A DNA stretch of 64,000 nt from a bacterium. GTDB taxonomy: Bacteria > Sumerlaeota > Sumerlaeia > SLMS01 > JAHLLQ01. Position 1 is the first letter of the stretch. Every line of letters starts with the position of its first letter. The translations under genes and the position numbers were made by a program. Shown piece by piece: positions 22,022 to 53,629 of the stretch. The notes below the pieces were generated by a model. That model saw only the letters and a list, made by a program, of their open reading frames with translations, made no database searches and was not told where the DNA came from. The stretch spans positions 198,662-262,661 of the forward strand of contig JAHLLQ010000004.1 of assembly GCA_020444065.1 (NCBI GenBank). The letters are read 5' to 3'.

Positions 22022-22729
22022 TCAGCCCAGCTTCTTGCGCAGGCGCCACAGTGTCACGAAGGCTTTTACGATTTCCAGCCCTGAAATCTTCGATTCTCCT
22101 GCCCGCCGATCGTGGAAGACGATCGGGATCTCCCGGATGCGCGCGCCGCGGCGCTGGCAGACAGCCAGCAGCTCCATCAGGCAACTGTATCCATCCGAAC
22201 GAATCGAATCCAGATCGATGCCGCGCAGCAGCTTCGTGCGATAGCACCGATAGCCGCTCGTGCAATCCCGTGCCTTCAGTCCCAGGATCATTCGCGCGAG
22301 CGTATTCGCGCCCCAACTCAGGACGTAGCGATGCGGACCCCAGTTCCGGATGCCGCCCCCGGCGATATACCTCGACCCGACGACCACATCCGCGATCCGC
22401 GCCATGTGCAGAATCTCGTACAGGTGCCTCGGATTATGCGACAGGTCCGCGTCCATCGTGATGGCGAGGTCGTATTCCCGCTCCATCGCCCAACGGAACC
22501 CCGCCAGGTAGGCCGTTCCCAGCCCCAGCTTGCCTTCGCGCTCCAGCAAATGCACGCGCCCGGGGTACTCTTCGGCCCGCTCGCGAACCAGGTCGGCCGT
22601 TCCATCCGCCGACGCGTCATCCACGACCAGCACATCCACCTGTCCGCGCTGTTCCATCAGACCATCGATCAGATGGCCGATGTTCTCCACTTCGTTGTAG
22701 GTCGGAACGATGCAAACGGCACGCGGCAT
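22022..22729 (-). CDS. GT2 family glycosyltransferase, polyprenol-phosphate mannose/glucose synthase-like
   Basis: Track ORF 235 aa; CIVPTYNE...VLVVDDASADGT...MDADLSHNP pattern typical of Dpm1-like GT2 enzymes. Confidence 0.85.
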   Translation of the reverse strand: MPRAVCIVPTYNEVENIGHLIDGLMEQRGQVDVLVVDDASADGTADLVRERAEEYPGRVHLLEREGKLGLGTAYLAGFRWAMEREYDLAITMDADLSHNPRHLYEILHMARIADVVVGSRYIAGGGIRNWGPHRYVLSWGANTLARMILGLKARDCTSGYRCYRTKLLRGIDLDSIRSDGYSCLMELLAVCQRRGARIREIPIVFHDRRAGESKISGLEIVKAFVTLWRLRKKLG

Positions 22730-34200: not shown

Positions 34201-35738
34201 TTCGCGGCCGCAATGGCCAGGTGATTGCCGAAGGCGAAATGACTCCGGATGGACGTGGCGGCGTTGTCGGTGCCGTGATGGCTGAATTGCCCCGCGACCA
34301 GATGGAGTATCGTCTGATCACGCGAGCGATGGGAAAGAGCGGCGAGCTGTATCGCGCGGGTATGCGAGTCCCTCGCGCGCCCTCGAAGGTCGTCATCGAA
34401 CTGGTCGAAATCGGCGACGTTAGCTATGATCCGCCGTCGCGCGAGTTCACTTACGTTCTCTACAACCAGGGAAACTTCGCGCAGTGGGGTGAGTTGAATG
34501 TCACCCGCCTTCACGACGGAAAACGCATTCAGGCAGGCGTGATTCCATTCGAACTGAAGGCGAAGGAACGCCAGTCCTTCCCGATTAGGCTGGAAGCGCC
34601 CCCCGGAGCTTACGTGATTCAAGCCAATGTGCATCCCTCGCGTACGTACGACTTAAACGAGGAACTTCCCAGCGCGTTGTCGACCGATTGCCTCGTCATT
34701 CCGGACCAGGAGAATCCCGAGGCGGATCTTGTGATTCCGACCGATGCGTTCCGAATTCTTCCTGCGAAGAGCAAGTCCTCCTCGCCATTGGCAGAGACGT
34801 TTATCGCAAACACCGGTGGTAAGCGTCCACGCGCGCGGCTGATTTACCGTGCAGCCTATCCGAATGGCAAAGTCGTGGAAGGCAGCCGGGTGATCGGCTG
34901 GGTCGATCCGGGAAAGGCTGTCCGTTCCACGATCCCAATGCAGATCGAACTCGAAATGACTGCCGATTTGAAAGTTGAATTAATCAGTGAGTCGATGGAT
35001 TTCGAGGATCCGAATCCAGACAATAACTCCCTGACGCGGACGGTTACGGCGGAGTCGATGCCGGACATTCAACTCATTCCCGGCAGCCTGAAGATCTCGC
35101 CCCCGCACCTGGCGGAAGGCGTGACGATCTTCGTTGAAGGTAAGGTCGTCAATCGCGGCCAGACACGTTCTGCAGGTTGCAAGGTTGCGCTCTTCCCGGC
35201 CGGAGACACGGGATTCAACGAGCCTCTGCGCAGCCTGGCCGGACAGAATGGTTCCGACATTCCGCCCCTGCAGCCAGGTTCATCGTGGCCGTTCAAGATT
35301 CGCTGGGATGCCCACGACAATTTGAACGTCGATTCCGTTCAATTACTCCTCGACTCGGATCAGATCCTCGTCGAATCGAACAAACGGAACAACCTCATCA
35401 GCGTGCCACTCGAAATTAAATCGAAGTGGAAACTGGCTCCGCGCGGAATTGCTTTCAAGCAGGATCGCCCGGGTTACTTGACTCTGATCGCGCGTGTCGC
35501 GAACGAAGGCCAAACCGACGCCCGACGCGTGAATGTGATGTTCTATCGAACCACTGACCAGAACGATGAGACCTTCCTCGGCGAAGTGCTCGTCGATCGC
35601 ATCCCCGCCGGCAACATGGCTCTCATCCAGTTCCCATGGAACCTGGAAGGCGAGAACATGCGCCAGAAGGTCCAGCCCAGCTTCAACGTATCGCTGAAGG
35701 GCAGCCTGCAGCGAATCTCGTCGGTCACGGAAGAGTAA
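31212..35738 (+). CDS. giant secreted clan CD cysteine peptidase, gingipain-like (C25-like), with C-terminal CARDB-like repeats
   Basis: Track ORF 1508 aa; signal peptide MATFANHRSLAFSSLILLLTLCAGTALA; putative catalytic His-Gly dyad in FFGHGSP (His codon 33666..33668) and Cys in SFTCNNG (about 33783..33785); C-terminal Ig-like/CARDB-like repeats. Family call from motif memory. Confidence 0.7.
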   Translation: MATFANHRSLAFSSLILLLTLCAGTALAAKIPAKGIESLPHEYLFEQADSLRSFSDRIELQGSINSDELHLLRRAWVVAAPPGEIEYEIRSLTIKDHITGVPVELTSAEGIDEVRESYGFRTGFIVEEMGIMRNVRLLRVVVNGDAQILYNKRSFSLRQFDIVIKFPEWSPEDVSNGSFSSEQSSLRQMLEQSVANPEMLDLYAQADPPETETSLHAKSAWQPRPELTAEDFPWLKIPITEDGLYAIDGRWLSGQGLDPSTIDPASLFLVNRGEEVALVQAGPEGASFATGARLIFLGLKNHSKETNERIYFLGRRETPQERPALATAEDLDEDAEVERTYRRKTRIEEDVNLETRVGSFLSIREMTWVWDELPRDTPESFTFDLQTLPSSAPAAKGSIKVYYAGVGLTGVVTLAVKLNGKELVPGATLTSRRNVVDFDIPEGLLQVNDNVFELTMKQPTGSGNRQIPPIYLDYIELEHQSLFRAHDGQHLADFGSEKSISGNVRLGAVGFRPYRMLAVDVTKPEQPLRLPVVEGEGIIYVLADVTPETRILMMEDDVVPRAPAGEPLHWQDWRAQDSSAQVVVIYHPDFEESAHRLAADIESSGRDVVLADVESIYEAYTDGELSVDAIQMFLRDAIYRWDGERPTHAILVGDCTSDGQRVSRNDVINYVPTHVIEEAETHAIDEYATDQYYAWLAGDDEVADIIVGRISVNNITDADTVVDKSIEYRRQDPSIWASRFVTVSDPAEFESVSSMLVHTSVDPWFDYTAINTADYPWEDNFYLPRNYIQGDEIKVAPVVTTKLQEEIDSGLGVISFFGHGSPNIWSNQRIWFGGDSENSDNLRLRNRDRLAFMTSFTCNNGAIDYPVPRWNVCIAEDMMRVPKGGMVACFVPSGPGYSERHLRLAEGFFRTLTHLKVREFGQVAEMSRLTYQAMLGSDDHARMFIFLGDPTLKFPAIERDAELSIRPDVLSAAVDRQPIRAAMTTEEEELTTGTMILRGRNGQVIAEGEMTPDGRGGVVGAVMAELPRDQMEYRLITRAMGKSGELYRAGMRVPRAPSKVVIELVEIGDVSYDPPSREFTYVLYNQGNFAQWGELNVTRLHDGKRIQAGVIPFELKAKERQSFPIRLEAPPGAYVIQANVHPSRTYDLNEELPSALSTDCLVIPDQENPEADLVIPTDAFRILPAKSKSSSPLAETFIANTGGKRPRARLIYRAAYPNGKVVEGSRVIGWVDPGKAVRSTIPMQIELEMTADLKVELISESMDFEDPNPDNNSLTRTVTAESMPDIQLIPGSLKISPPHLAEGVTIFVEGKVVNRGQTRSAGCKVALFPAGDTGFNEPLRSLAGQNGSDIPPLQPGSSWPFKIRWDAHDNLNVDSVQLLLDSDQILVESNKRNNLISVPLEIKSKWKLAPRGIAFKQDRPGYLTLIARVANEGQTDARRVNVMFYRTTDQNDETFLGEVLVDRIPAGNMALIQFPWNLEGENMRQKVQPSFNVSLKGSLQRISSVTEE

Positions 35739-40220: not shown

Positions 40221-40455
40221 GCTCTCTTCCCAAAACCAGGGACGCACACATTGGCAGATACAGAACCGAAGAAGTCGGCGCAGTCGTCGGCACAATTCGT
40301 CAAGCCTCGGCAAGCCCTTTCACGCTGGTGCTACAGGCGAATCTTACGCGGCGGCATGCGCAAGAACGGCACCGTTGGCATACGCCCAAACGGCAACCGC
40401 GGCTACAGACAATAACAATCAGAACCCCGGATGGAATGTCCGGCGGGGGTGAAAC

Positions 40456-41031
40456 TCACTGAGGCGCAGTCTTCAGTACGGCGAAGCACGTGTTCGTAAT
40501 CGTGCGCGCATAGGGACGCAGTTTGCCCTTCAGCCGACCGTAGCGATTGCCCACGGCGCTTTGCATCACCATGCCCAGCAGCAACTGCGTGGATAGCGCG
40601 ACGTTCTGCTCCGGAATCTCGCCGCGCTTGATCGCGCCGTCGATCACGCTCGTGATGACGTCGACCGGGTTCGCCATATCCTGGCGTACCGCGTCGAGCA
40701 ATTCGTGCTGCACCAGCAGGACGAATTGGAACCCCTTCGGATCCTCGTCGTACGCGGCATAGAAGCCGTCGATCATTGCGAAGAGCTTATCCTCGATCGC
40801 CCGGCCCTTCTGGTCGGCCGCCTTCATCAGGTCGGCGTATCCCTGGAAGTACTGGAAGAACAGGTAGCGGACAAGATCGTCCTTACTGGCGTGGTGGCGA
40901 TAGAGCGCCCCCTCGGTGACTTCGGCGCGTTCAGCGATCTGGCGAATGCTGGCGCCGTCGATGCCGCACTCGACGAAAAGCTCCAATGCGGCGCGTTCAA
41001 TGTCTTTCTTTTTCTTTGGCGGGCGAGCCAC
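40456..41031 (-). CDS. TetR/AcrR family transcriptional regulator
   Basis: Track ORF 191 aa; N-terminal HTH ...GASIRQIAERAEVTEGALYRHHASKDDL. Confidence 0.85.
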   Translation of the reverse strand: MARPPKKKKDIERAALELFVECGIDGASIRQIAERAEVTEGALYRHHASKDDLVRYLFFQYFQGYADLMKAADQKGRAIEDKLFAMIDGFYAAYDEDPKGFQFVLLVQHELLDAVRQDMANPVDVITSVIDGAIKRGEIPEQNVALSTQLLLGMVMQSAVGNRYGRLKGKLRPYARTITNTCFAVLKTAPQ

Positions 41032-41181
41032 GACGCGCTTCCTTCCCTTCGAAATGTAAGCAAACGTTGACCGGCTCCCCGAACCAAAGCAACTCCAAAT
41101 CGCTGCAGTTTCTCTTGTTGCCTCGCGGGGGGTCCCCCTGGACTATGCTGATAACCGAATATAGACAGGGAGGACGGCACG

Positions 41182-42639
41182 ATGTTCCCTCACCGCCGCC
41201 TGTTGCTCGCGCTGCTCTGTTTGCCGGCGTTGACGACCTGCACACACGCCCAGGTTTTGCTCAACGGTTCCCACAAATTCGTTACCTCGGATGAGAACGA
41301 GATGTTCATCGACCCCCGTCGAGCGGTTGATCGATCCGATTGTGGACAGATCGCCTTCGTTTCTTACGAGGCCCTGCAATACACCTTCCATCGCCTGCTA
41401 CTCTACGAAACCTTCGAAGGCGGTGGGGCAGGCGAGGTGACCGAACTGCCGAGAGGTTTCAACACCGAAGCCGACGCTGCCTATGATTCCGACTGCAGGC
41501 TGTTCGTCTATCTCGCCAGCGGATCCCAGACGGAGACCCGTATCCGCCAGGATGACGGCGCTTTCCTTACTTTCGAGAGGAATCTAGCCATCCCCGACTT
41601 CACGGGTGCCGCCTACAATCTGTTGGACTTTTTTCGCGGAGAAGACGGCAATCTGCACGCGGTGCACTTCGCCTATCGGTTTGTTCGAGACGGACGGGCC
41701 TCTGAGAAGCGCCTGATTTGGGGCACCTGGCGCAACGGAGCTTGGGAGGACCGCGTTATCAGTGACTACAGCGGCACGATCTTCGGCCCGCTGGACGCGG
41801 CTGTGAATGCATATGGGCATCTCTATGTGCTGGCCGATCCGCCGAGTTCCCACAGCTACTCCGAGGATCTGTTCTTCAATGTGTACTCGCCGGAGTTGTC
41901 GACATCGGAGAACGTTCGGCCCGCGCCGGGGATGGATTTCCATCCGTTGGAGGCAAGCCTTGCCCTCGGTCCCAATGGCGAGATCTCCATCGCTGGAACA
42001 TTCATGCAGACCGTCGAGACCGGATCGCCCACTTACATCAACCTTCGTTACTTACGGCGCACCGGGGACAATCAGTGGAACGAGACGTCCATCGCGACAA
42101 GCGACGACGACTATCACGGCAGCGACGGCAGCAATTACACGGGCCGCCGGCCACTGCTTGAGTATGACGAAAGCGGAGGTTTGCATCTCGCCTTCAGCGA
42201 TCATTCGAACTGGCATAATCCCTACAGCGAATCCGAGATTGGCCAGGTGCGTTACGGTTATCTTCCGCCAGGGGGAACTGCCTGGACGCTGACAACGGTC
42301 TTCCGTCAGCCTGGGCGCTCTGCCAGTCCAGACCCGTTGCACGGCTTTCGCCTTGGCGGACTCGCGCCTTCTCCCAGCGGCCGCCGCGCAAACATCTTCG
42401 GCGCCGAGCGAATCGTCGTGTACAACAACGACCCCTTCGCTGCGCCCGACATCGTGACCATGAATGGTCTGCAATTCGATGTTCAGAACACTCAGGCTGC
42501 CTCCGTTGCTGCGCCCAATTACGCCGTGCTGAACTGGCTGCTCGGCCGGCCGTTCGCTGGGGGTGCCCCAGCGGATGGAAACGGCGACGGTGCACTTGGC
42601 TCTGCGGATTTGATCGGAACGATCGCACTGGAGCCCTAG
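41182..42639 (+). CDS. secreted hypothetical protein with C-terminal dockerin/EF-hand-like Ca-binding motif
   Basis: Track ORF 485 aa; signal peptide MFPHRRLLLALLCLPALTTCTHA; C-terminal ADGNGDGALGSADLIGTIA motif; divergent from the TetR gene. Confidence 0.6.
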   Translation: MFPHRRLLLALLCLPALTTCTHAQVLLNGSHKFVTSDENEMFIDPRRAVDRSDCGQIAFVSYEALQYTFHRLLLYETFEGGGAGEVTELPRGFNTEADAAYDSDCRLFVYLASGSQTETRIRQDDGAFLTFERNLAIPDFTGAAYNLLDFFRGEDGNLHAVHFAYRFVRDGRASEKRLIWGTWRNGAWEDRVISDYSGTIFGPLDAAVNAYGHLYVLADPPSSHSYSEDLFFNVYSPELSTSENVRPAPGMDFHPLEASLALGPNGEISIAGTFMQTVETGSPTYINLRYLRRTGDNQWNETSIATSDDDYHGSDGSNYTGRRPLLEYDESGGLHLAFSDHSNWHNPYSESEIGQVRYGYLPPGGTAWTLTTVFRQPGRSASPDPLHGFRLGGLAPSPSGRRANIFGAERIVVYNNDPFAAPDIVTMNGLQFDVQNTQAASVAAPNYAVLNWLLGRPFAGGAPADGNGDGALGSADLIGTIALEP

Positions 42640-42737
42640 CAGGTCCGTATCGCGAAACAAGCCTCATCTCCATTGCGCCGGTCCGGTTCGTTGACGCAGC
42701 GTTCCTGTTGCTGCAATTCCCGACCGAAAGGCCCTTC

Positions 42738-44117
42738 ATGTTCGCCAACCTCTGTCGTTTCAGTCTCCTGCTTGCGATTTTGCTCGCTGCCAGCGCCGTC
42801 GCTCAGAGTGACGATGCTCCGACCAGCGGCACCACCGCGCTAATTGAGGAGGCCGTGGCTCTCATCGATCAGACCGATGTGCCCATCCAGGAGCGCATTG
42901 CCCGCACCGAGGCGATCTTGCGCGAGCACCCCGGAGCAGCCGAAGTCTGGGCGGCCCTCGGTGAACTGCGACGCGACGCTGGAGAGGACGAGGCGGCGCT
43001 GCTGGCCTTCGAGCGCGCCGTCGCCAAGGACGATTCGCTGTACTCTGCGTGGCACTGGATTGGGATCCTGAACAAGCGCGAACGCCGCGATCTGGATCGC
43101 GCCCTGGAAGCCTTTCAACAGGCGATCGATCACGGGGCCAGGAAGAGCCGCGAGTTGAATGAGATCGCGGTGACGCTGGCTTACAAGGGACGCATGGCCG
43201 AGGCGCTGCAAACCTGGGAAGAGACAATCGCCGACGATCCCGGCTGGGCGGTGCCATACGCGAATGCGATCAAGGCCGCCCTCTACCTGGACGATGAAGA
43301 CAAGGCCCAGGAACTCTTCGAAGCCGGCATCAAAGCCGATGAGTTCGAGGAGAACATCGCGCTGCATTGGGGTCAGTATCTGCTTAACGACGGTGACGAG
43401 GATGAGGCAGCCGACGTCTATCGCCGCGCGCTTGAGCGCGCTCCGGAAAATGCCGTGCTGCGGTTCTACTACGGGTTGGCGTTGCGCGAGTCCGGCGACG
43501 AAGACGCGGCGATTGAGAATCTGAAGCGCGCCTATACGTTGGGCCTCAAGGAAGGCCGCCCAGATGTCTACGAGGCCGCAAACGAGCAACTGTTTGCGAC
43601 GCGCTATCCGAAGGAATGGAAGCGCCTTCAGAAGGCCGCCAAGACCGTTTTCGCAAACCACGAATCACAGGAAGACATTGTGAAGGCCGCCGAGAAGGGG
43701 CTGAAGATCCTGAACCCGATCATCAGCGATCACCCGGACATCTGGAATGCTTACCTGGTGCGCGGTGTGGCGTATCGACGCATGAACGAACCGGCCCTGG
43801 CGAAGCGCGATCTGCGTCGCGTTCTGGAACTGAGTCCCAACGAACCAAACGCCTGCATTCACCTCGCCATGTTGCATCGCGATCTTGACGAAATGGAAGA
43901 TGCCACGAAGTACGCGCACGAAGCGGCAGAGGCCGCCCCACGCGATCCTTCGATCCTGGCCAACGCAGCATTTGTGTTCCTTGACGCCGACGACTGCAAA
44001 TCGGCGCGCATGATGTTCGATCGCGCGCGCGACCTTGTCCCGGAGGGCAGTATCCCCGCCGACCAGGATCCCCTGTTCCCGCTGCAGGATGAAATTCAGG
44101 CGAACTGCGGCCAATAA
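42738..44117 (+). CDS. TPR repeat protein, secreted
   Basis: Track ORF 42708..44117; preferred start ATG 42738 (MFANLCRFSLLLAILLAASAVA); multiple TPR-like helical repeats. Confidence 0.75.
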   Translation: MFANLCRFSLLLAILLAASAVAQSDDAPTSGTTALIEEAVALIDQTDVPIQERIARTEAILREHPGAAEVWAALGELRRDAGEDEAALLAFERAVAKDDSLYSAWHWIGILNKRERRDLDRALEAFQQAIDHGARKSRELNEIAVTLAYKGRMAEALQTWEETIADDPGWAVPYANAIKAALYLDDEDKAQELFEAGIKADEFEENIALHWGQYLLNDGDEDEAADVYRRALERAPENAVLRFYYGLALRESGDEDAAIENLKRAYTLGLKEGRPDVYEAANEQLFATRYPKEWKRLQKAAKTVFANHESQEDIVKAAEKGLKILNPIISDHPDIWNAYLVRGVAYRRMNEPALAKRDLRRVLELSPNEPNACIHLAMLHRDLDEMEDATKYAHEAAEAAPRDPSILANAAFVFLDADDCKSARMMFDRARDLVPEGSIPADQDPLFPLQDEIQANCGQ

Positions 44118-44144
44118 GCTCCGGACACCGAGGGACTACCGATC

Positions 44145-46127
44145 GTGCTGCTTCTGCTCTTCGATGCTCTAGCCTCACTGATTGCCGGCCGCGTCGCCGC
44201 GGGGTGGGTGTTTTCCGATGAGGAAACGCCCGACCGGCTGACGCTTTGGCTGCTGTGGTCGATCAGCTTTTTCCTCCTAACCCCATTGGCAATTGGAACC
44301 ATTGCCGGCTCGCTGACGGTGAAGTCATTGTACGTTGGTTTCAGTATTCTGACTGTGGCCGCGATCATCGCGCACATCGCGATCGGTCGACGCCTGACGT
44401 CCTGGAAATACGACAAGGTCGGTCTCGGCGATTCAATCCTGCTGGCCTGGGGGCGCGAGATTCTCGGCGCCTCGTGGAAGGCGCGCTTCGCGTGGGCGAT
44501 CGTTGTCCTTTGGGTGCTTGGCATGTCGGCGCCCGGTTGGTTTCTGACGCCGCGCACTTGGGACGCCGTCGAATGCTACATGCTGCAACCCGTCGATTAC
44601 CTTCCGCCGCACGAGTTCTCGCTGTCGCTTCCGTTGCCTGGCGGCCCCGAGCAGTACCGTACGCTCGGCGAGACGTTCCCGAACCTGAAGGGCTTCTGGG
44701 CCATCCAGGTGATGCTCGGGCGGGACTCGATGAAGGGCGCCGGCCTCGCACAAGTTCCGTTCCTGTTCATCGCTCTCGTGGCCCTGTGGGGGATCGGACG
44801 GCGACTCGAATTGCCCGCCTGGACGACGGCCGTTGGGGCGTTCTTTCTGATCTCAATGCCGGAGGTCATGCTGCAGTCGACTGAGCTCTACACTGACGTC
44901 CAGACCAGTTCGACATTGCTGATCGTCTTATGGGCCTTGACCGGCCTGGATCGCGAGGCCTTCCCGCGCCGCTGGATTGTCGTCGCCGGCCTGGCCTTCG
45001 GACATCTGGCCGCCGCAAAAGCGTCTCTCCTGATCACCGGCGGCCTTCTTGGGCTCCTGGCCGTGGGGCTGGCGATGCATCGCGCCGGCAAAGGGAAACG
45101 CATCCAGTTCGGCGCGTTGATGCTCGCATCTGGCCTTATCGGAGGAGTCGTTCTTGCGGGGCCGTGGCTGCTTCGAGGAGCCATCGTCTACCACAACCCA
45201 ATCTACCCGATTTCGGTATCCGTCGGCGATCACATGATTCTTCCAGGGACCGGACCAGCAAGTCTGAATACCGGTGTCCTGATGAGTCAGACTGGCTTGA
45301 CGGAATCGCAGGCCTACTTGAACTCGGCCCTCGAAGGCGGAGGAATTACGCATCTTGGGTTCATCGCGGGCGGGTGGGGACCACAGGGCCTGGTTTTCGG
45401 ACTGCCCGCTCTCATCCTGCTGGCAGTGCTGGGATTTCGAAGGAACGCGACGCGCTGGCGCCTCATCCTCGCAGTTGTTGCGCTCGTCATTCTGGGTTCG
45501 CCGGATCTCTGGTGGCCGCGTTTCGGGCTCCAGGTTCTTATCTTTGCAACCGTCGGCGTGGCTGCATGGATGGCACTGGCAGACCGTTGGCAGCGTATTC
45601 TCCTGATGATGCTCCTGATCGTGTTCGCAGGCTGGAATGGGCTGCGCGTTGTCCCATCGATCCTCTTCCGCTGCTATGAACCCATCATACTGGCCTATCC
45701 ATTCATTACTGGCGACCCGATCCCCCTTTTGGAGGAACATCGTCCCGACGAGTTCGCCGCGCGTGACTTTGCCCGTGAAATAGCCGGCTCTGATCCAGGC
45801 GTTCGCATGGCATACATTGGCGATGCCACATACAGGATGCCGCCCATTCGGCTAATCCCCGATGAAATGCGCAACCCACTGGTTCCAACCGGTCGGATTG
45901 AAGACACCGATGGGCCGGAAGCGTGGATGGCCGATCTTCTCGATTCGGAAGCGACTCATATCATCCTGCCATTCGGGCGCCCCGAAGGTCGGCTACTCGA
46001 CGAGCATCCAGAGCATTTCCAGTCATTGTACCGGGATCGTCCCTGGCGAGCGGAGCACCCCTGGGGACCTTCGCAGTATCCACGCGAAGCGGTCTGGGCC
46101 ATTCAGCGGGAGGGCGCCGATGAATAA
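44145..46127 (+). CDS. large polytopic membrane protein (660 aa), function unknown; possibly GT-C-like glycosyltransferase
   Basis: Track ORF from GTG 44145; more than 10 hydrophobic helices plus a C-terminal soluble region; GT-C idea is inference only. Confidence 0.65.
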   Translation: MLLLLFDALASLIAGRVAAGWVFSDEETPDRLTLWLLWSISFFLLTPLAIGTIAGSLTVKSLYVGFSILTVAAIIAHIAIGRRLTSWKYDKVGLGDSILLAWGREILGASWKARFAWAIVVLWVLGMSAPGWFLTPRTWDAVECYMLQPVDYLPPHEFSLSLPLPGGPEQYRTLGETFPNLKGFWAIQVMLGRDSMKGAGLAQVPFLFIALVALWGIGRRLELPAWTTAVGAFFLISMPEVMLQSTELYTDVQTSSTLLIVLWALTGLDREAFPRRWIVVAGLAFGHLAAAKASLLITGGLLGLLAVGLAMHRAGKGKRIQFGALMLASGLIGGVVLAGPWLLRGAIVYHNPIYPISVSVGDHMILPGTGPASLNTGVLMSQTGLTESQAYLNSALEGGGITHLGFIAGGWGPQGLVFGLPALILLAVLGFRRNATRWRLILAVVALVILGSPDLWWPRFGLQVLIFATVGVAAWMALADRWQRILLMMLLIVFAGWNGLRVVPSILFRCYEPIILAYPFITGDPIPLLEEHRPDEFAARDFAREIAGSDPGVRMAYIGDATYRMPPIRLIPDEMRNPLVPTGRIEDTDGPEAWMADLLDSEATHIILPFGRPEGRLLDEHPEHFQSLYRDRPWRAEHPWGPSQYPREAVWAIQREGADE

Positions 46128-46965
46128 GTATCTTTCCCACCTGATGATTGGTTTGGCAGTGGCGGCTCTGATCCTGACCATCATTTATGCTGTTCAACCG
46201 GCGCGAACGATGGAGATCAAAGCGCTGAAGGTCGAATTCTACGGCGCGCTCCCCCGGGCCGGCATATCCCTCGATGGCCGTCACACGCGAAACCACCTGG
46301 TGGCGGGGAAATTCACCCCGTGGACGCACATGACCTCCCGCGCGATGCTGACGCGATGGCGTGAGCGCGAAGCAGCACCCTTCGCCGTTGAGTCGCTCTA
46401 CAGTCGCTGGGAATCGGGGTTCTGGCGGCTGCCGACTTTGGGAGAATGGACGGAAACGCTCGAACAAGTCGACCGCGAGTGGCTCGAGCAACGGGCTGAA
46501 TACAGCGAACCGTGGGAGATATCCGCGGCGGATGCACTCGATCAGAACTGGACGTTCACCGTCTATCCGGCCGACGCAGCCGAACAGATCCCGATTGTCC
46601 GTGACGATGAATCGATCGAGTTTACTCTCACCCCGGATGCGCCTCCGACGATCCAGTTCCTCGTCAAGCCGGCCGGCCTTCCAACGGCACGGATCGGCGA
46701 TGTTCTGCTGGTCGAGTGGGGAGAAGAGGGTTGGGAGATGCCACCGACACTCTACTGGTCAACGACCCAACTCGCAATCAGCGGACGGCGAATGAAGGTC
46801 GGAGAGACAACGGAACCGGACACGTCGGCCTACAGTTTTCCGGCCGAGCCGGGATGGATTTGCCATGGGGCGGAGGCCTGGACATGGCGGTTCGATTTTG
46901 CTCCGAAGGGCGGAAAGATCGTGCTTCGCGGCTTCCGCGGGGAGGATTCGGGGCGGATTTACTGA
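46120..46965 (+). CDS. hypothetical membrane-anchored protein (281 aa), translationally coupled to the preceding membrane protein
   Basis: ATG 46120 in the track ORF frame (45862..46965); 8-nt overlap (ATGAATAA) with the upstream gene stop; N-terminal TM helix MNKYLSHLMIGLAVAALILTIIYAV. Confidence 0.6.
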   Translation: MNKYLSHLMIGLAVAALILTIIYAVQPARTMEIKALKVEFYGALPRAGISLDGRHTRNHLVAGKFTPWTHMTSRAMLTRWREREAAPFAVESLYSRWESGFWRLPTLGEWTETLEQVDREWLEQRAEYSEPWEISAADALDQNWTFTVYPADAAEQIPIVRDDESIEFTLTPDAPPTIQFLVKPAGLPTARIGDVLLVEWGEEGWEMPPTLYWSTTQLAISGRRMKVGETTEPDTSAYSFPAEPGWICHGAEAWTWRFDFAPKGGKIVLRGFRGEDSGRIY

Positions 46966-47051
46966 TATCTCCGCATGAATTCCCGAGTTGACCCGTCGCC
47001 TCTGCCCGGGCGAGGCTGTTCGATCATCATACCAAGGGATGGTGTGCTCGT

Positions 47052-47960
47052 ATGAACAAAGATTCGGATGCTCTGGTAGGACAAATCGCGGACGTCGTGA
47101 TGCAGGTAATGGCCGAGCGCGGCCTTCTCGGTGGGGGAGACGCCCCCGCCGCATCTGCGACGGTTGGGACAGGAACGGCCTGTAGTTTGCCCCACGGCAT
47201 GGCTGCCCAAGGCCCTCCGCCCAAGCACGATCTCGTGCAGGCCGGCGCCGAGCGCATCGGCCACACCGGCGAGCAGCCTCCCAGCGGCGAGGCCTGCATG
47301 CGGCTGTCGAACTACATCGACCATACGCTGCTGAAGGCGACGGCGACCGAGGACGAGATTCGGCGCCTCTGCGAAGATGCTCGGAAGCATCAGTTTGCAT
47401 CGGTCTGTGTCAACTCGGCTTACGTGCCGCTTTGCAAAGAAATGCTGGAAGGCTCCGGCGTCAGCGTCTGCACCGTCGTCGGATTTCCCCTGGGGTCGAT
47501 GTCCAGCGAGGCCAAGGCCTTCGAGACCGCCGATGCCGTGACCAAGGGGGCCGACGAAGTCGACATGGTTATCAATGTCGGTAAGCTTCAGTCGGGCGAC
47601 TTCAAGTACGTCTGCGACGACATTCGGGCCGTTGTGTCCGCGGCGCGCGGCCGCACCACCAAGGTCATCATCGAGACATCCTATCTGAACAACGACGAGA
47701 TCGTGCATGCCTGTGTGCTCTCCAAGGCTGCAGGTGCAGACTTCGTGAAGACCAGCACCGGATTCGCCGGCGCCGGGGCGAAGGCCGAGCACGTAGCGCT
47801 GATGCGCAAGACCGTCGGCAAGGAAATGGGCGTGAAGGCCAGCGGCGGAATCCGTGACTGCGACGCAGCCCGCCAGATGATCGACGCAGGGGCCAATCGT
47901 CTCGGCGTCAGCGCCAGCGTTGCCATCGTACAGGGCAAGAAGTCGGACAGCAGCTACTGA
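47052..47960 (+). CDS. deoC: deoxyribose-phosphate aldolase with 82-aa N-terminal extension
   Basis: Track ORF 302 aa; canonical DeoC begins at internal MRLSNYIDHTLLKATATE; Schiff-base lysine region DFVKTSTGF; also KVIIETSYL and VKASGGIR. Confidence 0.85.
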   Translation: MNKDSDALVGQIADVVMQVMAERGLLGGGDAPAASATVGTGTACSLPHGMAAQGPPPKHDLVQAGAERIGHTGEQPPSGEACMRLSNYIDHTLLKATATEDEIRRLCEDARKHQFASVCVNSAYVPLCKEMLEGSGVSVCTVVGFPLGSMSSEAKAFETADAVTKGADEVDMVINVGKLQSGDFKYVCDDIRAVVSAARGRTTKVIIETSYLNNDEIVHACVLSKAAGADFVKTSTGFAGAGAKAEHVALMRKTVGKEMGVKASGGIRDCDAARQMIDAGANRLGVSASVAIVQGKKSDSSY

Positions 47961-47964
47961 GTAA

Positions 47965-49446
47965 ATGACCACAAAACTCATCGAATTGATCGAGTCGTTC
48001 CCTGGCCGGCGCGTGCTGGTGGTGGGTGATGCGATTCTGGATCACTATGTCATTGGAAGCGTCAGCCGCACGTCGCCAGAGGCGCCGGTCGCTGTCCTGC
48101 GCGTCACGGAAGACGAATGGCTGCCGGGCGGGGCGGCAAACGTCGCGCGTAACCTGGCGGCGCAGCGCTGCCAAGCCACGCTGATTTCTCTTCGCGGCGA
48201 CGACGAACACGGTCGGCGCCTGGAGGAGTTGCTCGGCCGTGATGCGAGCATTCGTCTCGCGTTTGTCGTCGACAAGACGCGTCCCACAACGCTTAAGACC
48301 CGCTGCGTGGCTCAGGGTCAGCAGATGATGCGTCTGGACCGCGAAGAGTCCGGCCCAATCTCCGACACGGTTCGGAAGCGCGTAATGACCGCCGTGCGCC
48401 GCGAGATGAAGCAAGCCGATGGGGTGATTCTCAGCGACTATGGCAAGGGCCTTCTGACGACCGCCCTGGTGCAGGAGATCATCGCCGCCGCTCGTGAGTA
48501 CAACGTTGAGGTGCTGGTCGATCCGAAGGGAACCGACTACTCGCGCTACAAGGGCGCGACTCTGATCACGCCCAATCAGAAGGAAGCCCAGGAGGCCAGT
48601 GGCATCTCGATCGTCGACGAGGAATCCGCTCGTGAAGCCGCCCGCATCTTGCAGGCGAAGGTGCGTGGCAAGGCGATCTGCATTACCCTCGGCGGGCGCG
48701 GTGTGGCTGTCTTCCCGCGGCGCGGTCGCTCCGTTCAGATTCCTGCCCGCGCGCGCGAAGTCTTCGACGTCACGGGCGCGGGCGACACGTTCATCGCGCT
48801 GTTCAGCCTGGCGCGATTCTGCGGCGCGACCTTTCCGCAGGCCGCAGAGATCGGTAATGTTGCCGCCGGCATCGTTGTTGGACGCGCAGGCGTTGCGACC
48901 GTTTCTCTCGATGAATTGAAGCGCGAATTCCTCGGCCAGTCTGCCAACCGCAAGGCGATGGGAATGCGCGAACTGGCGGAAGTCTGTCACTCGCTCTCAC
49001 GAGCCGGCCGGAAGACGGTGTTCACCAACGGCTGCTTCGATGTCTTGAATGTGCGGCACATCCGGCTGCTGGAGCAGGCGCGCGCCCTCGGCGACGTGCT
49101 CGTCGTTGCGCTCAACAGCGACGCGAGCGTCCGACGCCTGAAGGGCGAGCCGCGACCGCTGCTGACCGAGTCGGAACGGGTTGAATTGATCGGCTCGTTG
49201 CCGTACGTTGACTACATCACGGTCTTCGACGGTGAAACGCCGAACGAACTGCTCGAACGGTTGCGCCCGGATATTCTGGTGAAGGGCACTAACGTTGAGA
49301 ATGTCGTTGGCCAGGAAATTGTCGAAGGCTACGGTGGCGAGATTCGCCTGCTCGATCTCGGATTCGGCCCCAGCGTCGACGAGGTCATTCATCGCGCTGC
49401 CGAGGGCACAGCCCCCAATAAACGTAAGCGAAAAGGACGCACATGA
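47965..49446 (+). CDS. hldE: bifunctional D-glycero-beta-D-manno-heptose-7-phosphate kinase / heptose-1-phosphate adenylyltransferase
   Basis: Track ORF 493 aa; N-terminal ribokinase-like domain (DVTGAGDTFIA) and C-terminal nucleotidyltransferase domain (TNGCFDVLNVRHIRLL); starts 4 nt after the deoC stop. Confidence 0.85.
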   Translation: MTTKLIELIESFPGRRVLVVGDAILDHYVIGSVSRTSPEAPVAVLRVTEDEWLPGGAANVARNLAAQRCQATLISLRGDDEHGRRLEELLGRDASIRLAFVVDKTRPTTLKTRCVAQGQQMMRLDREESGPISDTVRKRVMTAVRREMKQADGVILSDYGKGLLTTALVQEIIAAAREYNVEVLVDPKGTDYSRYKGATLITPNQKEAQEASGISIVDEESAREAARILQAKVRGKAICITLGGRGVAVFPRRGRSVQIPARAREVFDVTGAGDTFIALFSLARFCGATFPQAAEIGNVAAGIVVGRAGVATVSLDELKREFLGQSANRKAMGMRELAEVCHSLSRAGRKTVFTNGCFDVLNVRHIRLLEQARALGDVLVVALNSDASVRRLKGEPRPLLTESERVELIGSLPYVDYITVFDGETPNELLERLRPDILVKGTNVENVVGQEIVEGYGGEIRLLDLGFGPSVDEVIHRAAEGTAPNKRKRKGRT

Positions 49447-50558
49447 GTTCCGGGCATTTCGTTGATCAGGTTCAGATCCACGTGAAGGCCGGGGACGGAG
49501 GACATGGCTGCATTTCCTTTCTGCGGATGAAAGGACAGCCATTCGGTGGCCCCGACGGTGGAGACGGCGGGCGCGGCGGTTCGGTGATTCTCGAAGCCGA
49601 ACCGGAGATGCTGACGTTGATCGATTTCAAGTCGCGGCATCACGTGAAAGCCCCGCGCGGTGCAAACGGCGGTGGTAAGAATTGCTCCGGCCGCAGCGGC
49701 TCCGATGTCGTTCTTAAGGTTCCCCTCGGCACGGTTGCCATCGACGCGGACACGCACGAAGAGCTCGGCGATCTGACGCAGCCCGGCCAGCAGCTCGTAA
49801 TCGCCAAAGGGGGCGACGGCGGAAACGGCAACCAGCACTATGCGACCCCGACCAACAAGGCGCCGCGGAAAGCGCAGGATGGCTTCCCCGGTGTGGAACG
49901 AAATGTCGTTCTCGAGCTGAAGGTCATCGCCGATGCCGGGCTCGTCGGCCTGCCAAACGCCGGCAAGTCGACATTGTTGGCCGCCATGACGCACGCGCAT
50001 CCGAAGATTGCGCCCTATCCGTTCACGACAATTCATCCGAACCTGGGCGTCTTCGTCGCATCGGACTTCCAGCGTCGGATTACGCTGGCCGACATTCCGG
50101 GCCTCATCGAGGGCGCCCATACTGGCCAGGGCCTCGGCCATCGATTCCTGCGCCATATCGAGCGCACACGCGCCCTGGTACATCTCGTGGCACCGGAAGC
50201 CGGCACGGACGACGACGGAACAATCACGCTGGCCGACGCGCATCCGGAGACGCTTCTCTACGCGTACGATCTGGTTCGCAGCGAGCTCGAAAGCTACAGT
50301 TCCAAGCTCCTTCTGAAGCCCGTTATCGTGTGTTTGAACAAGGTCGATTTGATGTCCGAAGAGGAAGTCGCGGCAATCGTCGACGCCTTCCGAACCGAAC
50401 GCGACATCGAAGTCCACTTGCTCTCTGCGCAAGACAAGAGCGGAGTAGTGGAACTGCAACGCAAGATCGAGGAACTGGTGCTGGATCCCCCGACCGAGGA
50501 ATCGGAAGTCCGATCCAGGTCCCTGCCTCAATTCGAACTTCGCGAGGAGGAGTCATGA
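49443..50558 (+). CDS. obg: GTPase Obg/CgtA
   Basis: Track ORF 371 aa; Obg fold N-terminal Gly-rich region; G1 motif GLPNAGKST; start overlaps the hldE stop (ATGA). Confidence 0.95.
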   Translation: MSSGHFVDQVQIHVKAGDGGHGCISFLRMKGQPFGGPDGGDGGRGGSVILEAEPEMLTLIDFKSRHHVKAPRGANGGGKNCSGRSGSDVVLKVPLGTVAIDADTHEELGDLTQPGQQLVIAKGGDGGNGNQHYATPTNKAPRKAQDGFPGVERNVVLELKVIADAGLVGLPNAGKSTLLAAMTHAHPKIAPYPFTTIHPNLGVFVASDFQRRITLADIPGLIEGAHTGQGLGHRFLRHIERTRALVHLVAPEAGTDDDGTITLADAHPETLLYAYDLVRSELESYSSKLLLKPVIVCLNKVDLMSEEEVAAIVDAFRTERDIEVHLLSAQDKSGVVELQRKIEELVLDPPTEESEVRSRSLPQFELREEES

Positions 50559-51166
50559 CTCGCCGCATCCTATTTTCGCTGATTCTACCGGTCATCCTCT
50601 TGACTGCCGGTTGTGTGAATATCGCGCCCAAGCTCGGCACCGGGCGTGCCGAGGTCGAACGCTTCGAACGCGCCGTGGACGTGAACCCTGCCAACGAGCA
50701 CGCCTGGTTCCTGCTCGGGAAACGCTTCCTCCAGGGAGAGGATTTCTCGAACGCTGAAAACGCGTTCGAGCACGCGATCGATCTGCGCCCTGACTTCTCC
50801 GAAGCCTATGTGGGCATCGGGGTGAGCCGCCTGCAGCGGGAAGACTGGCGCGGAGCAGCCGATGCCTACGAGCGTCTCCTCGCCATCGAGCCGCAGTCCG
50901 TCGCGGCATACGAGGGCCTGGCCGCTGCGCACCTCGGCGCAAAAGATATCGACGACGCGGAAGCGGCCGCTCTTGAAGCGCTCAAGATCTACGACGGCGC
51001 CCTGCAGGCTCACCGTATCCTTGGCGAAGTCTACTACATTCGCGGCAACTACGCGGGTGCGGTCGAGCAATGGAACATCTCGCTCGAAGAAGGCGAACGC
51101 GCCAGCGATCTTCAGCCCCTTGTCGATGATCTGACCCACTACATGCGCAAGTACGGCGCGGACTGA
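50555..51166 (+). CDS. TPR-repeat lipoprotein
   Basis: ATG 50555 in the track ORF frame (50330..51166) behind RBS GAGGAGGAG; overlaps the obg stop (ATGA); lipobox LLTAGC; TPR-like repeats. Confidence 0.75.
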   Translation: MTRRILFSLILPVILLTAGCVNIAPKLGTGRAEVERFERAVDVNPANEHAWFLLGKRFLQGEDFSNAENAFEHAIDLRPDFSEAYVGIGVSRLQREDWRGAADAYERLLAIEPQSVAAYEGLAAAHLGAKDIDDAEAAALEALKIYDGALQAHRILGEVYYIRGNYAGAVEQWNISLEEGERASDLQPLVDDLTHYMRKYGAD

Positions 51167-51211
51167 TTTCTTCTTCGCGGCCGGGCTCGATACACTTCAG
51201 TTGAGTTCTGA

Positions 51212-53629
51212 TTATTCTGTGATGATGGCCGCATCGGCCAGCGGAGCCGGTTCCGGCATTTCTCCGTCCGGGTAGGCACGCCAGACAGCCTCTTCATCAG
51301 CCGTTGCGGCAGCAGACGCCCAACCGGTCGAGAAGTCCACCAATTCCAATCGCCATCCCCGCGGCATCGGCAGCTCGGTGCGCGCGTGCGATCGCGATGT
51401 CCAATAATCCGACACAAATTGCGCCCAGATCGGTCCGGCGGCCCGTCCGCCGGTTTGCCCGGCACCCAGGGGAAGCGGCTGGTCAAAGCCGACCCAAACG
51501 GCAACGACGGCCTCCGGTGTATAGCCCACGAACCAGGCATCGCGATTGTCGCTGGTCGTGCCCGTCTTTCCCGCGACGGCGTCGCGCAGTTGCTCCGGCA
51601 GCATTTCGCGCAGGCGTTTGCCCGTGCCGCGCGTCATGACCCCGACCAGCATCTGCTGCATCCAGGCCGCCGTGCGCGAATTGAGCTGGTCCTTCGGCTG
51701 GCGCTTGTGCGTGACGAGTGGATGGCCCTCCGCGCTGCGGACAGAACGAATCGCCGTCGGGACCGATGCCTCCCCGGCGTTTGCAAAGGCAAGGTAAGCC
51801 GCGGCAGCTTCCAGCGGCGTGACACCTGATGTCCCGAGCGCGACGGGATACTCGACCGGCATTTCCCAGTGCGGCGCGCCAGGCGTGACATCGAACTCGC
51901 GAACGCGCCGGATGCACTCGCGCAAGCCAGCCTCCTGCACCATCTGGATTGTGACAACGTTGCGGGAGTGCTCGAGCGCTGTCTGCAGCGACGTCGGGCC
52001 GAAGTGAATGTTCTCGTAGTTGCGCGGCGAGTAGCCGTTCGAGAACTCGATCGGCTGATCGTCGAAGATCGTCCAGGGCGCCATTCCGCGTTCCATCGCG
52101 GCGGCGAAGAAGAACGGCTTCAGCGTCGATCCGGCCTGGCGCCGCGCACGCATCGCCCTGTTAAAATACCCGTTGTTGGCGCGATCTGCCCACTCGCGTC
52201 CACCCGCCAGCGCCAGAATCTCGCCGGTTCGGCTGTCGAGGCAAACCAGTGCGCCTTGCAGGCGGGTCTGTGGGAGCAGATCGCCGCGGAACAGACCCTT
52301 CTCAGGCATGACTTCGCGAACTTCCAAGTCAACGCCATCGCCTGGGCCGACATGGGCAAAGTAAGTCGCGGTTGCTTCTGGAATTTTCAGATCGCCCCGC
52401 CAACTGCCCGCGAGTTCGACGACCAAAGAGCCCGGGAACGTGCGCACAACCCGGCCCATGCGAACCTGCCCCGGTCGGGGGGTCTCCCACCACTCGGCGG
52501 CATCGCGTGCTGACGCGAATCGGTCCGCGCGCGTGGCCAGCCACTCCGATTCGGCCTTGTCCAGCCCCGCACGGAGAGCAGCCAGCGCCAGCTTCTGCGC
52601 TTCGCCATCCATCGTCGTCCGAACGGTCCACCCAGCGGCCCGGGCGCGTTCGCCTAGCAAGGCCGGTTCGGCCGCAAGCTCTGCCCGCACGGCATCCAGG
52701 AAGTAATCCGCATCTCCCGCGCCGCTTCGGGTCGGCCCCGCAACTCGCAGGGGGGCCTCACTGGCCTGCGCATATTGCGCCTCTCCGACCCAACCCAGTT
52801 CCTTCATCCGCGCCAGTACCTGTTCGCGCCGGCGGAGCGCGGCTTCCGGATCGTTCAGCGGCGAGTAGCGCTCCGGCAACTGGGGGAGTCCCGCCAGCAG
52901 GGCGCTCTCTGAAAGTTCCAGATCGCGTGCGGACTTGCCGAAGTACATCTGCGACGCGGCCTCGACGCCGTAGTTTCCGCTGCCGAGGTAGATCTGATTC
53001 AGGTAGACTTCGAGAATCTGGTCCTTGGAGTACCGCCGCTCCATCTGCAGCGCGATCAGCGTCTCGTGAACCTTGCGGCGCAGTGTCTTCTCGCGGCCGA
53101 TTTCCGGCAGCAGGTTGCGTGGCAACTGCTGGGTGATTGTGCTGGCGCCCTGCGACAAGGTCCCGCGGCTGGCGTTGATGACCGCCGCGCGCAGGATGCC
53201 TTTGGGATCCAGGCCGATGTGGTGGCGGTAATTCGCATCCTCGATCGCAATGAACGCCTCCGGCAGATGCGCCGGCAGATCGTCGAGGTGCACGACCTGG
53301 CGGCGCTGCTCGAACATTGTCGCGATGGGCCGGCCATCGCGATCGAGCAGTGTGGTCGTTTGGGGGGGATCGTATTGCTCGAAGGCCTCGATGGGAGGAG
53401 CCATCTCGAGCCAGGCGACCAGGGCACCGGTCGCGAATCCGCTGACCGTGATTCCCAGAAGAATCGCCAGGCTGCCCACCCACCAGGCCAGACGAGCGGG
53501 GCGGTTACAGCCTTGCCGACGGCTGCGGGGGGCTGGCGTCTCGTCAGCGCGTTCCTGTGCCCCGCGAGATCGCAGGTGGCCCAGCATTGCATTCGATTGT
53601 CCGGCTCGCGCCAAGGCAGTCCTCTCCAC
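51212..53629 (-). CDS. mrcA: penicillin-binding protein 1A (bifunctional transglycosylase/transpeptidase)
   Basis: Track ORF 805 aa; GT51 motifs (AIEDANYRHH, TITQQL); transpeptidase motifs STLKP and KTGTT; N-terminal TM anchor. Confidence 0.9.
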   Translation of the reverse strand: MERTALARAGQSNAMLGHLRSRGAQERADETPAPRSRRQGCNRPARLAWWVGSLAILLGITVSGFATGALVAWLEMAPPIEAFEQYDPPQTTTLLDRDGRPIATMFEQRRQVVHLDDLPAHLPEAFIAIEDANYRHHIGLDPKGILRAAVINASRGTLSQGASTITQQLPRNLLPEIGREKTLRRKVHETLIALQMERRYSKDQILEVYLNQIYLGSGNYGVEAASQMYFGKSARDLELSESALLAGLPQLPERYSPLNDPEAALRRREQVLARMKELGWVGEAQYAQASEAPLRVAGPTRSGAGDADYFLDAVRAELAAEPALLGERARAAGWTVRTTMDGEAQKLALAALRAGLDKAESEWLATRADRFASARDAAEWWETPRPGQVRMGRVVRTFPGSLVVELAGSWRGDLKIPEATATYFAHVGPGDGVDLEVREVMPEKGLFRGDLLPQTRLQGALVCLDSRTGEILALAGGREWADRANNGYFNRAMRARRQAGSTLKPFFFAAAMERGMAPWTIFDDQPIEFSNGYSPRNYENIHFGPTSLQTALEHSRNVVTIQMVQEAGLRECIRRVREFDVTPGAPHWEMPVEYPVALGTSGVTPLEAAAAYLAFANAGEASVPTAIRSVRSAEGHPLVTHKRQPKDQLNSRTAAWMQQMLVGVMTRGTGKRLREMLPEQLRDAVAGKTGTTSDNRDAWFVGYTPEAVVAVWVGFDQPLPLGAGQTGGRAAGPIWAQFVSDYWTSRSHARTELPMPRGWRLELVDFSTGWASAAATADEEAVWRAYPDGEMPEPAPLADAAIITE

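Follow-up and report, generated by a model that had tools for sequence, protein, structure and literature searches.

A conserved pair of overlapping membrane protein genes in Sumerlaeota: a candidate two-subunit GT-C glycosyltransferase of the cell envelope

We analyzed a 64,000-nucleotide (nt) stretch of a Sumerlaeota genome (assembly GCA_020444065.1, contig JAHLLQ010000004.1; hereafter "the window") with regard to two adjacent genes, called gene A and gene B here, which encode membrane proteins of 660 and 281 amino acids (aa) and are deposited as "hypothetical protein KQI84_12210 / KQI84_12215 [bacterium]" (MCB2155641.1 for A and MCB2155642.1 for B). An earlier inspection of the letters alone (the sequence-only reading) had described an overlapping pair, the first protein with more than ten membrane helices and a soluble C-terminal region, the second a single-pass protein with a soluble domain, and neither belonging to a recognized family. 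This description held throughout: the stop of A and the start of B overlap by 8 nt, A is predicted to have 14 membrane helices and, at its C-terminus, a soluble domain of 150 aa, a helix at residues 7-25 followed by approx. 255 soluble residues is predicted for B, and searches of Pfam and NCBIfam returned no match for either protein. The coordinates of the features discussed below are collected in Table 1.

Table 1. Features of the A-B gene pair, in positions of the window. Conservation of residues in A was counted among 43 close and 107 wider cluster representatives (150 in total). GT-C, glycosyltransferase C; PMT, protein O-mannosyltransferase; TM, transmembrane helix.
Feature	Positions	Strand	Residues	Description
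Gene A (ORF A)	44145..46127	+		GTG start, 660 aa; predicted polytopic inner-membrane protein and putative divergent GT-C (PMT/ArnT-clan-like) glycosyltransferase
A N-terminal extension	44145..44396	+	1-84	three helices (2-23, 31-54, 59-84) in the model, ahead of canonical GT-C TM1
A GT-C core	44475..45674	+	111-510	eleven predicted membrane helices; long first (133-198) and long fourth (350-411) periplasmic loops
D140 codon	44562..44564	+	140	first periplasmic loop, motif DAxxYH; invariant in 42/42 close and 94/94 wider aligned
D251 codon	44895..44897	+	251	Asp just before TM4 (helix 251-268); invariant in 43/43 close and 104/104 wider aligned
K292 codon	45018..45020	+	292	Lys just after TM5 (helix 275-291), motif TK/AK; 43/43 close and 102/104 wider aligned
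NPIYP motif	45195..45209	+	351-355	start of fourth periplasmic loop; N351, P352 and P355 (near-)invariant across the 150 representatives
R459 codon	45519..45521	+	459	motif WWPRF, directly before TM10 (helix 461-478); invariant in 43/43 close and 100/100 wider aligned
A C-terminal periplasmic domain	45675..46124	+	511-660	mixed alpha/beta in the model (low confidence); acidic, 29 D+E versus 15 K+R
Gene B (ORF B)	46120..46965	+		ATG start, 281 aa; predicted single-pass membrane protein, new family
A/B stop/start overlap	46120..46127	+		ATGAATAA; 8 nt, read from the sequence
B membrane helix	46138..46194	+	7-25	sole N-terminal hydrophobic helix
B periplasmic domain		+	26-281	Trp-rich, 14 Trp in 255 residues

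Ahead of the ATG of B, at a distance of 6 nt, is a GGAGG-like site (positions 46109-46113), and GAGGGA is found at positions 44130-44135, 5' of the GTG of A. In a mechanical list of open reading frames (ORFs), the frame of B runs from an upstream ATG at position 45862 and comprises 367 aa. As the family-profile alignments begin at position 46120 for B and at approx. 44148 for A, these starts were retained. No second copy (paralog) of A or B is present elsewhere within the window.

The close relatives of A carry B with them. A homolog of B was located directly 3' of A for all 13 close A homologs examined, representing 12 loci (i.e., the window, W, as well as L001, L005, L006, L007, L013, L015, L016, L017, L018, L019, which was counted twice, and L020), so that the joint conservation in other genomes, which the sequence-only reading had made a touchstone of its proposal, is borne out. 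The observed overlap between the stop of A and the start of B was 4 to 8 nt in the eight pairs for which it was measured, and was 4 or 8 nt, as judged by gene coordinates, in three more. No B homolog followed the gene in four of four distant relatives of A (P0003, P0005, P0007 and P0008). Identity to homologs ranged from 23 to 44% for A and from 17 to 39% for B, and the pairwise identities of the two proteins were correlated (r = 0.85). Moreover, at least three genomes contain duplications of the whole A-B pair. Positions 7238-12731 of L019 hold a tandem A-B-A-B arrangement (647 + 268 aa, then 643 + 268 aa) in which the copies are 65% identical for A and 50% identical for B, and two Sumerlaeota metagenome-assembled genomes (MAGs) each contain two unlinked pairs in which each A has its own B (GCA_030156535.1, L006 and L018; GCA_964580585.1, L005 and L020). 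Since the homologs keep the same adjacent order and the overlap, including in the duplicated pairs, A and B are real genes rather than chance ORFs. All named members of the A-B family are from Candidatus Sumerlaeota or Sumerlaeaceae, and three loci were found among GTDB species representatives, all of them in Sumerlaeota MAGs.

The sequence-only reading had proposed, from a resemblance to GT-C glycosyltransferases, that A might be such an enzyme, and had named topology prediction and a structural search as checks. An AlphaFold2 model of A built from 10 sequences had a predicted template modelling score (pTM) of 0.71, with a predicted local distance difference test (pLDDT) score of 70-88 for most core helices. 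When this model was compared with solved structures using Foldseek, the top 26 matches were all GT-C proteins (best E = 3e-6), including ALG12, AftD, ArnT, ALG9, AftB, Emb, AglB, PglB, Pmt, PimE and PIG-U. The best structural match of A was a protein O-mannosyltransferase (PMT), and the best matches are active transferases. These results suggest that A very probably has the GT-C fold predicted by the model, nearest to the PMT/ArnT group. The predicted topology of A, with 14 helices and with both termini outside, supports the same conclusion: loop charges obey the positive-inside rule, the short inside loops hold Lys and Arg, which are both absent from the 62-residue fourth outer loop, and both long loops as well as the C-terminal domain are predicted to be outside. 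In the GT-C/PMT clan, long loops follow TM1 and separate TM7 from TM8 (PMC7801869), and the two long extracytoplasmic loops of A are at these places. The layout of the core agrees with the 11-TM scheme for the clan (PMC7801869), and A presents, as a polytopic membrane protein, the conserved helical core of GT-C enzymes. The three helices that precede this core are missing from the PMT_2-type relatives P0009 and P0011 (alignment A2); as these relatives begin at helix 111-132 of A, this helix represents the equivalent of TM1. The C-terminal domain carries motifs (AYPFxTGD, D541, ATH at 604-605, and EHPWGP) that are conserved in the close family and mostly unaligned in wider relatives.

Sequence comparisons connect A with the same group at a greater distance. 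A word-index homolog search with A found two relatives only, and a profile of these three sequences reached proteins annotated with PMT (PF02366), PMT_2 (PF13231) or DUF8201. When 1.84 billion cluster representatives were searched exhaustively with a profile, 4087 matches with E <= 1e-3 were obtained, 77 of them with E <= 1e-30; approx. 45 full-length relatives of A (640-690 aa; clusters at 50% identity) were found in this search. In a search of Protein Data Bank (PDB) sequences with a 10-sequence profile, yeast Pmt1 was the sole match (E = 0.0086). A itself gave no match to PMT (PF02366) or PMT_2 (PF13231) at E up to 1, the gathering threshold not being reached, and none to LIC_10190_fam (NF047510), which has a curated cut-off of 100 bits. 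Weak matches were present among 40 close relatives of A, i.e., to PMT_2 in four and to PMT in three (best E = 1.9e-5), to LIC_10190_fam in 12 (best E = 1.2e-7), and to WsfD in one, the latter two families being matched below their cut-offs throughout.

The functional positions described for the GT-C/PMT clan comprise an Asp in the first extracytoplasmic loop (D55 of ArnT, D77 of Pmt1), an Asp just before TM4 that is salt-bridged to a Lys just after TM5 (D158 and K203 of ArnT), and a donor-phosphate-binding Arg before TM10, in the fifth loop (R375 of PglB, R404 of TMTC1) (PMC7801869). D140 of A follows the end of helix 111-132 by 8 residues, in a loop whose predicted location is outside, and provides the acidic residue characteristic of the first loop of GT-C enzymes; from topology and alignment, we infer that it is the positional equivalent of ArnT D55 and Pmt1 D77, and we propose, by analogy, that it is a catalytic or acceptor-binding residue. 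D251 and K292 supply the Asp before TM4 and the Lys after TM5 of the PMT/ArnT clan, and in the HMMER alignment they are paired with an Asp of yeast Pmt1 and with the Lys of the Pmt1 segment SSSKW, respectively; by position, they would correspond to ArnT D158 and to its salt-bridge partner K203. R459 occupies the position of the Arg before TM10 in the same clan, and is proposed to be the counterpart of PglB R375 and TMTC1 R404 and a putative binder of the donor phosphate. Together with the profile link to PMT and PMT_2, these four residues, placed in the expected loops, support the guess that A is a GT-C glycosyltransferase. Further invariant or near-invariant positions of A are Q203, P239, Q244, W341, N351-P352-x-x-P355 and G412; for the NPIYP motif, which includes some of these, no described counterpart was identified.

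The cue on which the sequence-only reading had relied, i.e., an acidic stretch (SDEETPD) after the first helix, is indeed present (residues 24-30, positions 44214-44234), though it is not the catalytic acidic motif of GT-C enzymes. It is part of the N-terminal extension, which is specific to the family, in a loop predicted by parity to be cytoplasmic, and is weakly conserved, with mostly Arg in the column of E27 and with D30 kept in 23 of 43 close relatives. The true Asp of the first extracytoplasmic loop (EL1) is D140.

A word-index search with B recovered B itself only, a metagenome scan with the B alignment recovered only a contig that was already known, and no PDB sequence was matched. An alignment of five B sequences (A6) contains 17 invariant positions (F40, Y41, G63, W68, R74, R79, W80, G100, W102, D118, W121, P188, T189, G193, R224, P244 and W246), including five Trp. 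B represents a previously undescribed protein family. A represents a clade that is new and has no annotation, within a fold that is well known.

Overall, the analysis shows which fold A has, that its signature residues are conserved and where they sit in the loops, and that the pair is conserved, overlaps and is duplicated together; from these results we would read the activity of A, its type of donor, its association with B, and the role of B. The interpretation that we favor, and that we consider reasonably probable as a whole, is that A and B may form a periplasmic GT-C glycosyltransferase of two subunits whose donor is a polyprenyl-phosphate sugar and in which B serves an accessory or specificity role. 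Its parts differ in strength. That A is catalytically active appears likely; that B is a subunit of A is favored by a smaller measure, as suggested by the strict adjacency in 13 of 13 cases, the overlap of 4-8 nt, the co-duplication, and the correlated identities (r = 0.85). Envelope glycosylation or polymer modification, as put forward in the sequence-only reading, is the right level of claim for the pair.

According to this interpretation, A would bind a polyprenyl-phosphate-linked monosaccharide in the membrane and would move the sugar, at the periplasmic face, onto an envelope acceptor, which may be a protein, lipopolysaccharide (LPS) or another lipid, or a polysaccharide. D140 would work on the acceptor, D251 and K292 would hold the sugar, and R459 would hold the donor phosphate; these roles follow those of the counterparts in ArnT, PMT and PglB (PMC7801869). 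B, with its N-terminus inside and its Trp-rich domain in the periplasm, would be made in step with A via translational coupling at the stop/start overlap, and would dock on A by means of its membrane helix and this domain, most likely as a non-catalytic subunit that stabilizes the enzyme and/or recognizes the acceptor. A role of B in acceptor recognition is suggested by its faster divergence and by the presence of several pairs per genome.

A number of observations weigh against the proposed two-subunit glycosyltransferase. The mean pLDDT of 62 places the model of A at medium quality, and confidence is low for the loops and the C-terminal domain. GT-C folds can be non-catalytic, and PIG-U/GAB1 are among the structural matches. 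A of the window matches no curated glycosyltransferase family, and a profile of the close family (A3) found no solved GT-C protein among PDB sequences, giving noise only (E approx. 0.7, cytochrome bo3 subunit 2); as Pmt1 alone was reached by the 10-sequence profile and nothing by the close-family profile, the A clade is just outside the sequence reach of curated GT-C families. The equivalences of residues in A with those of ArnT and Pmt1 are based on alignment and topology. Moreover, A of the window has C144-Y145 (positions 44574-44579), shortly behind the invariant D140-A141, at near-invariant positions of the first loop where close relatives have Y (39/43) and H (41/43), which could reflect altered specificity or relaxed constraint; the remaining invariant positions are intact in this protein. 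Finally, no gene for donor synthesis or for a flippase is conserved near the pair.

The surroundings of the pair differ from locus to locus. The genes that neighbor the pair in the window (for a secreted 485-aa protein, a tetratricopeptide repeat (TPR) protein, DeoC, HldE, Obg, TetR and a GT2 enzyme resembling dolichol-phosphate-mannose synthase (DPMS)) have no homologs in related loci, and the contexts of the other pair loci are heterogeneous and mostly unrelated. On the 5' side, positions 41182-42639 (+) encode a protein of 485 aa that has an N-terminus like a signal peptide, a dockerin-/EF-hand-like C-terminal stretch (DGNGDGALGSADL) and no Pfam match, and positions 42708-44117 (+) encode a TPR protein of 469 aa whose N-terminus likewise resembles a signal peptide and whose gene ends 27 nt before A. 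Both were considered as members of the module and were rejected, as they have no homologs in related loci. On the 3' side, positions 47052-50558 (+) encode a DeoC-family aldolase, HldE (PfkB plus cytidylyltransferase) and an Obg GTPase whose gene overlaps that of HldE by 4 nt; the Pfam match of the aldolase begins at residue 88, which indicates an N-terminal extension or a mis-set start, and the presence of HldE implies that LPS or a glycan of this organism contains heptose. A scan of positions 40400-51500 for promoters and terminators gave counts not above those in shuffled sequences and placed no terminator between any of the genes for the TPR protein, A, B and DeoC, and was thus uninformative. 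Elsewhere in the window are a 1508-aa secreted-looking protein with Peptidase_C25 (gingipain-like) and CARDB domains (31212-35738, +), a class A penicillin-binding protein (51212-53629, -), and a 1480-aa secreted-looking protein with FG-GAP-like repeats (57041-61483, -).

As a possible source of a lipid-linked donor, the sequence-only reading had pointed to a GT2 polyprenol-phosphate sugar synthase located approx. 22 kb away. The gene at positions 22022-22729 (-) does encode a 235-aa protein that resembles a polyprenyl-phosphate-mannose synthase (the Pyrococcus dolichol-phosphate-mannose synthase 5mlz, E = 2.7e-30; ArnC, approx. 1e-9), and it could make a donor; no link to the pair was found, and no gene of this kind is conserved near the pair elsewhere. 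Judged by length and sequence only, the protein seems to have none of the C-terminal membrane helices that GtrB/ArnC-type enzymes carry. Its gene adjoins ORFs that, by sequence reading, resemble a purine nucleoside phosphorylase and an ATP-binding cassette (ABC) transporter, with no GT-C gene close by. A GT2 gene that adjoins the pair in L005 was also considered as a donor synthase and was rejected, since its product is chondroitin-synthase-like and not DPMS- or ArnC-like.

Two other loci were of interest for their gene content. In L013 (1490-8682), a Glycos_transf_N protein (WaaA-like, i.e., resembling a transferase of 3-deoxy-D-manno-octulosonic acid) and a GFO_IDH_MocA oxidoreductase are encoded 5' of the pair, and a divergent gene for an MsbA-like ABC exporter is located 3' of it; this LPS-flavored context is absent from the other loci. 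In L004 (1120-9598), P0003, the DUF8201-like relative of A that has no B, is part of a run of overlapping genes, with genes for two proteins without annotation (500 and 546 aa) on its 5' side and for a polysaccharide deacetylase and two GT2 enzymes on its 3' side; this run is a probable polysaccharide-modification cluster.

One possible alternative is that the pair represents specifically an ArnT-like system for modification of LPS or lipid A. The presence of HldE next door in the window, and of the WaaA- and MsbA-like genes in L013, would be consistent with such a system; however, these neighbors are not conserved and most loci have unrelated contexts, the occurrence of several paralogous pairs per genome is more in line with a family serving diverse acceptors than with one modification of lipid A, and the best structural match of A is not ArnT but a protein O-mannosyltransferase. 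We thus regard this narrower assignment as unlikely.

Pilin genes that adjoin a dedicated glycosyltransferase gene offer a likeness for a second alternative, in which B would be the acceptor substrate of glycosyltransferase A, or a carrier or chaperone of that substrate. An enzyme and a target dedicated to it would be expected to show strict adjacency and co-duplication as well, and B diverges faster than A, as is seen in the tandem copies of L019 (50% versus 65% identity). The properties of B itself fit a substrate poorly, though, as its periplasmic part is not rich in Ser and Thr (13.7% S+T), it has no pilin-like N-terminus, and its many invariant Trp, Arg and Gly residues look like those of a folded binding domain; moreover, the conserved overlap implies roughly equimolar synthesis, which is better suited to a subunit. 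Overall, these data make it quite improbable that B is the target of A.

We also considered whether A might be a non-catalytic scaffold of GT-C fold that binds a lipid or glycolipid, as PIG-U/GAB1 does in the glycosylphosphatidylinositol (GPI) transamidase, and that serves, with B, another function of the envelope. The signature of active PMT-clan enzymes (Asp, Asp-Lys, Arg; PMC7801869) is invariant over the 150 representatives, and the proteins that A resembles most in structure are active transferases, both of which argue against such a scaffold; we consider it very unlikely. That A and B are unrelated neighbors or chance ORFs with a meaningless overlap, as might be feared in GC-rich DNA, which yields long spurious ORFs and for which many overlapping ORFs were listed, is refuted to the point of being negligible by homologs of 17-44% identity with the same order and overlap and by duplicated pairs in related loci.

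Bacterial GT-C enzymes (e.g., ArnT, PglB, Emb, Aft and Gtr-type enzymes) decorate the envelope and influence resistance to antibiotics, recognition by phages and surface properties. Envelope glycosylation as a general function of the pair would be unsurprising. To our knowledge, these enzymes have in general been described as working with no single-pass subunit dedicated to them, and we found no description of a fixed two-gene module of this kind, and no papers on DUF8201 or LIC_10190. The proposed two-subunit glycosyltransferase would give a probable function to two families of "hypothetical proteins" that are invisible to Pfam and NCBIfam. The phylum Sumerlaeota is distributed worldwide; it has no member in culture, and its envelope is uncharacterized. 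A bolder form of the hypothesis, which we put forward tentatively, is that A and B may form an obligate heterodimer in which the fast-evolving B sets acceptor specificity, as a bacterial counterpart of PIG-M/PIG-X; whole pairs would have expanded within Sumerlaeota to build phylum-specific envelope glycoconjugates, and the two proteins would represent new glycosyltransferase and accessory families. A clade of GT-C enzymes that always has its own partner and is duplicated together with it would extend the heteromeric GT-C principle of eukaryotic GPI and oligosaccharyltransferase enzymes to bacteria, possibly as the first bacterial case, and would offer a way to learn how the specificity for an acceptor is encoded.

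Among known systems, two families close to A are themselves uncharacterized, i.e., LIC_10190 (NF047510), to which the matches from 12 of 40 close relatives and from P0003 are far below the cut-off (best 41.8 bits versus 100), and DUF8201 (PF26626), for which precomputed matches exist in P0003 and P0011. Compared to ArnT (GT83, the transferase of 4-amino-4-deoxy-L-arabinose (L-Ara4N) from undecaprenyl phosphate to lipid A; undecaprenyl-phosphate-L-Ara4N:lipid A transferase), A shows 13% identity; ArnT has no B-like partner. The A-B system occurs as several paralogous pairs per genome with no arn-type operon, and no arn-type genes (ArnC, ArnE, ArnF, others) adjoin the pair in the window or in 12 related loci. 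Compared to the PMTs (GT39; yeast Pmt1, Pmt2 and Pmt4) and bacterial PMT_2 proteins, A has DA rather than DE in the first loop, lacks the MIR domain in the fourth loop, and has an extra N-terminal three-helix extension and a C-terminal domain of its own; A also has, as far as is known, a separate single-pass partner in place of a PMT homo- or heterodimer. In the eukaryotic GPI mannosyltransferase I, the GT-C protein Gpi14/PIG-M requires the single-pass protein Pbn1/PIG-X, whose helix packs on the membrane helices of the enzyme (PMC9306709, PMC12653191). No similarity in sequence or fold was detected between B and Pbn1/PIG-X, the transmembrane helix and cytoplasmic tail of Pbn1 come after its luminal domain, whereas the helix of B is N-terminal, and Gpi14 is a weaker structural match to A than the PMT/ArnT group. 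As a GT-C enzyme with a single-pass accessory subunit, eukaryotic PIG-M/PIG-X is nevertheless the nearest precedent for the A-B pair, by functional analogy only.

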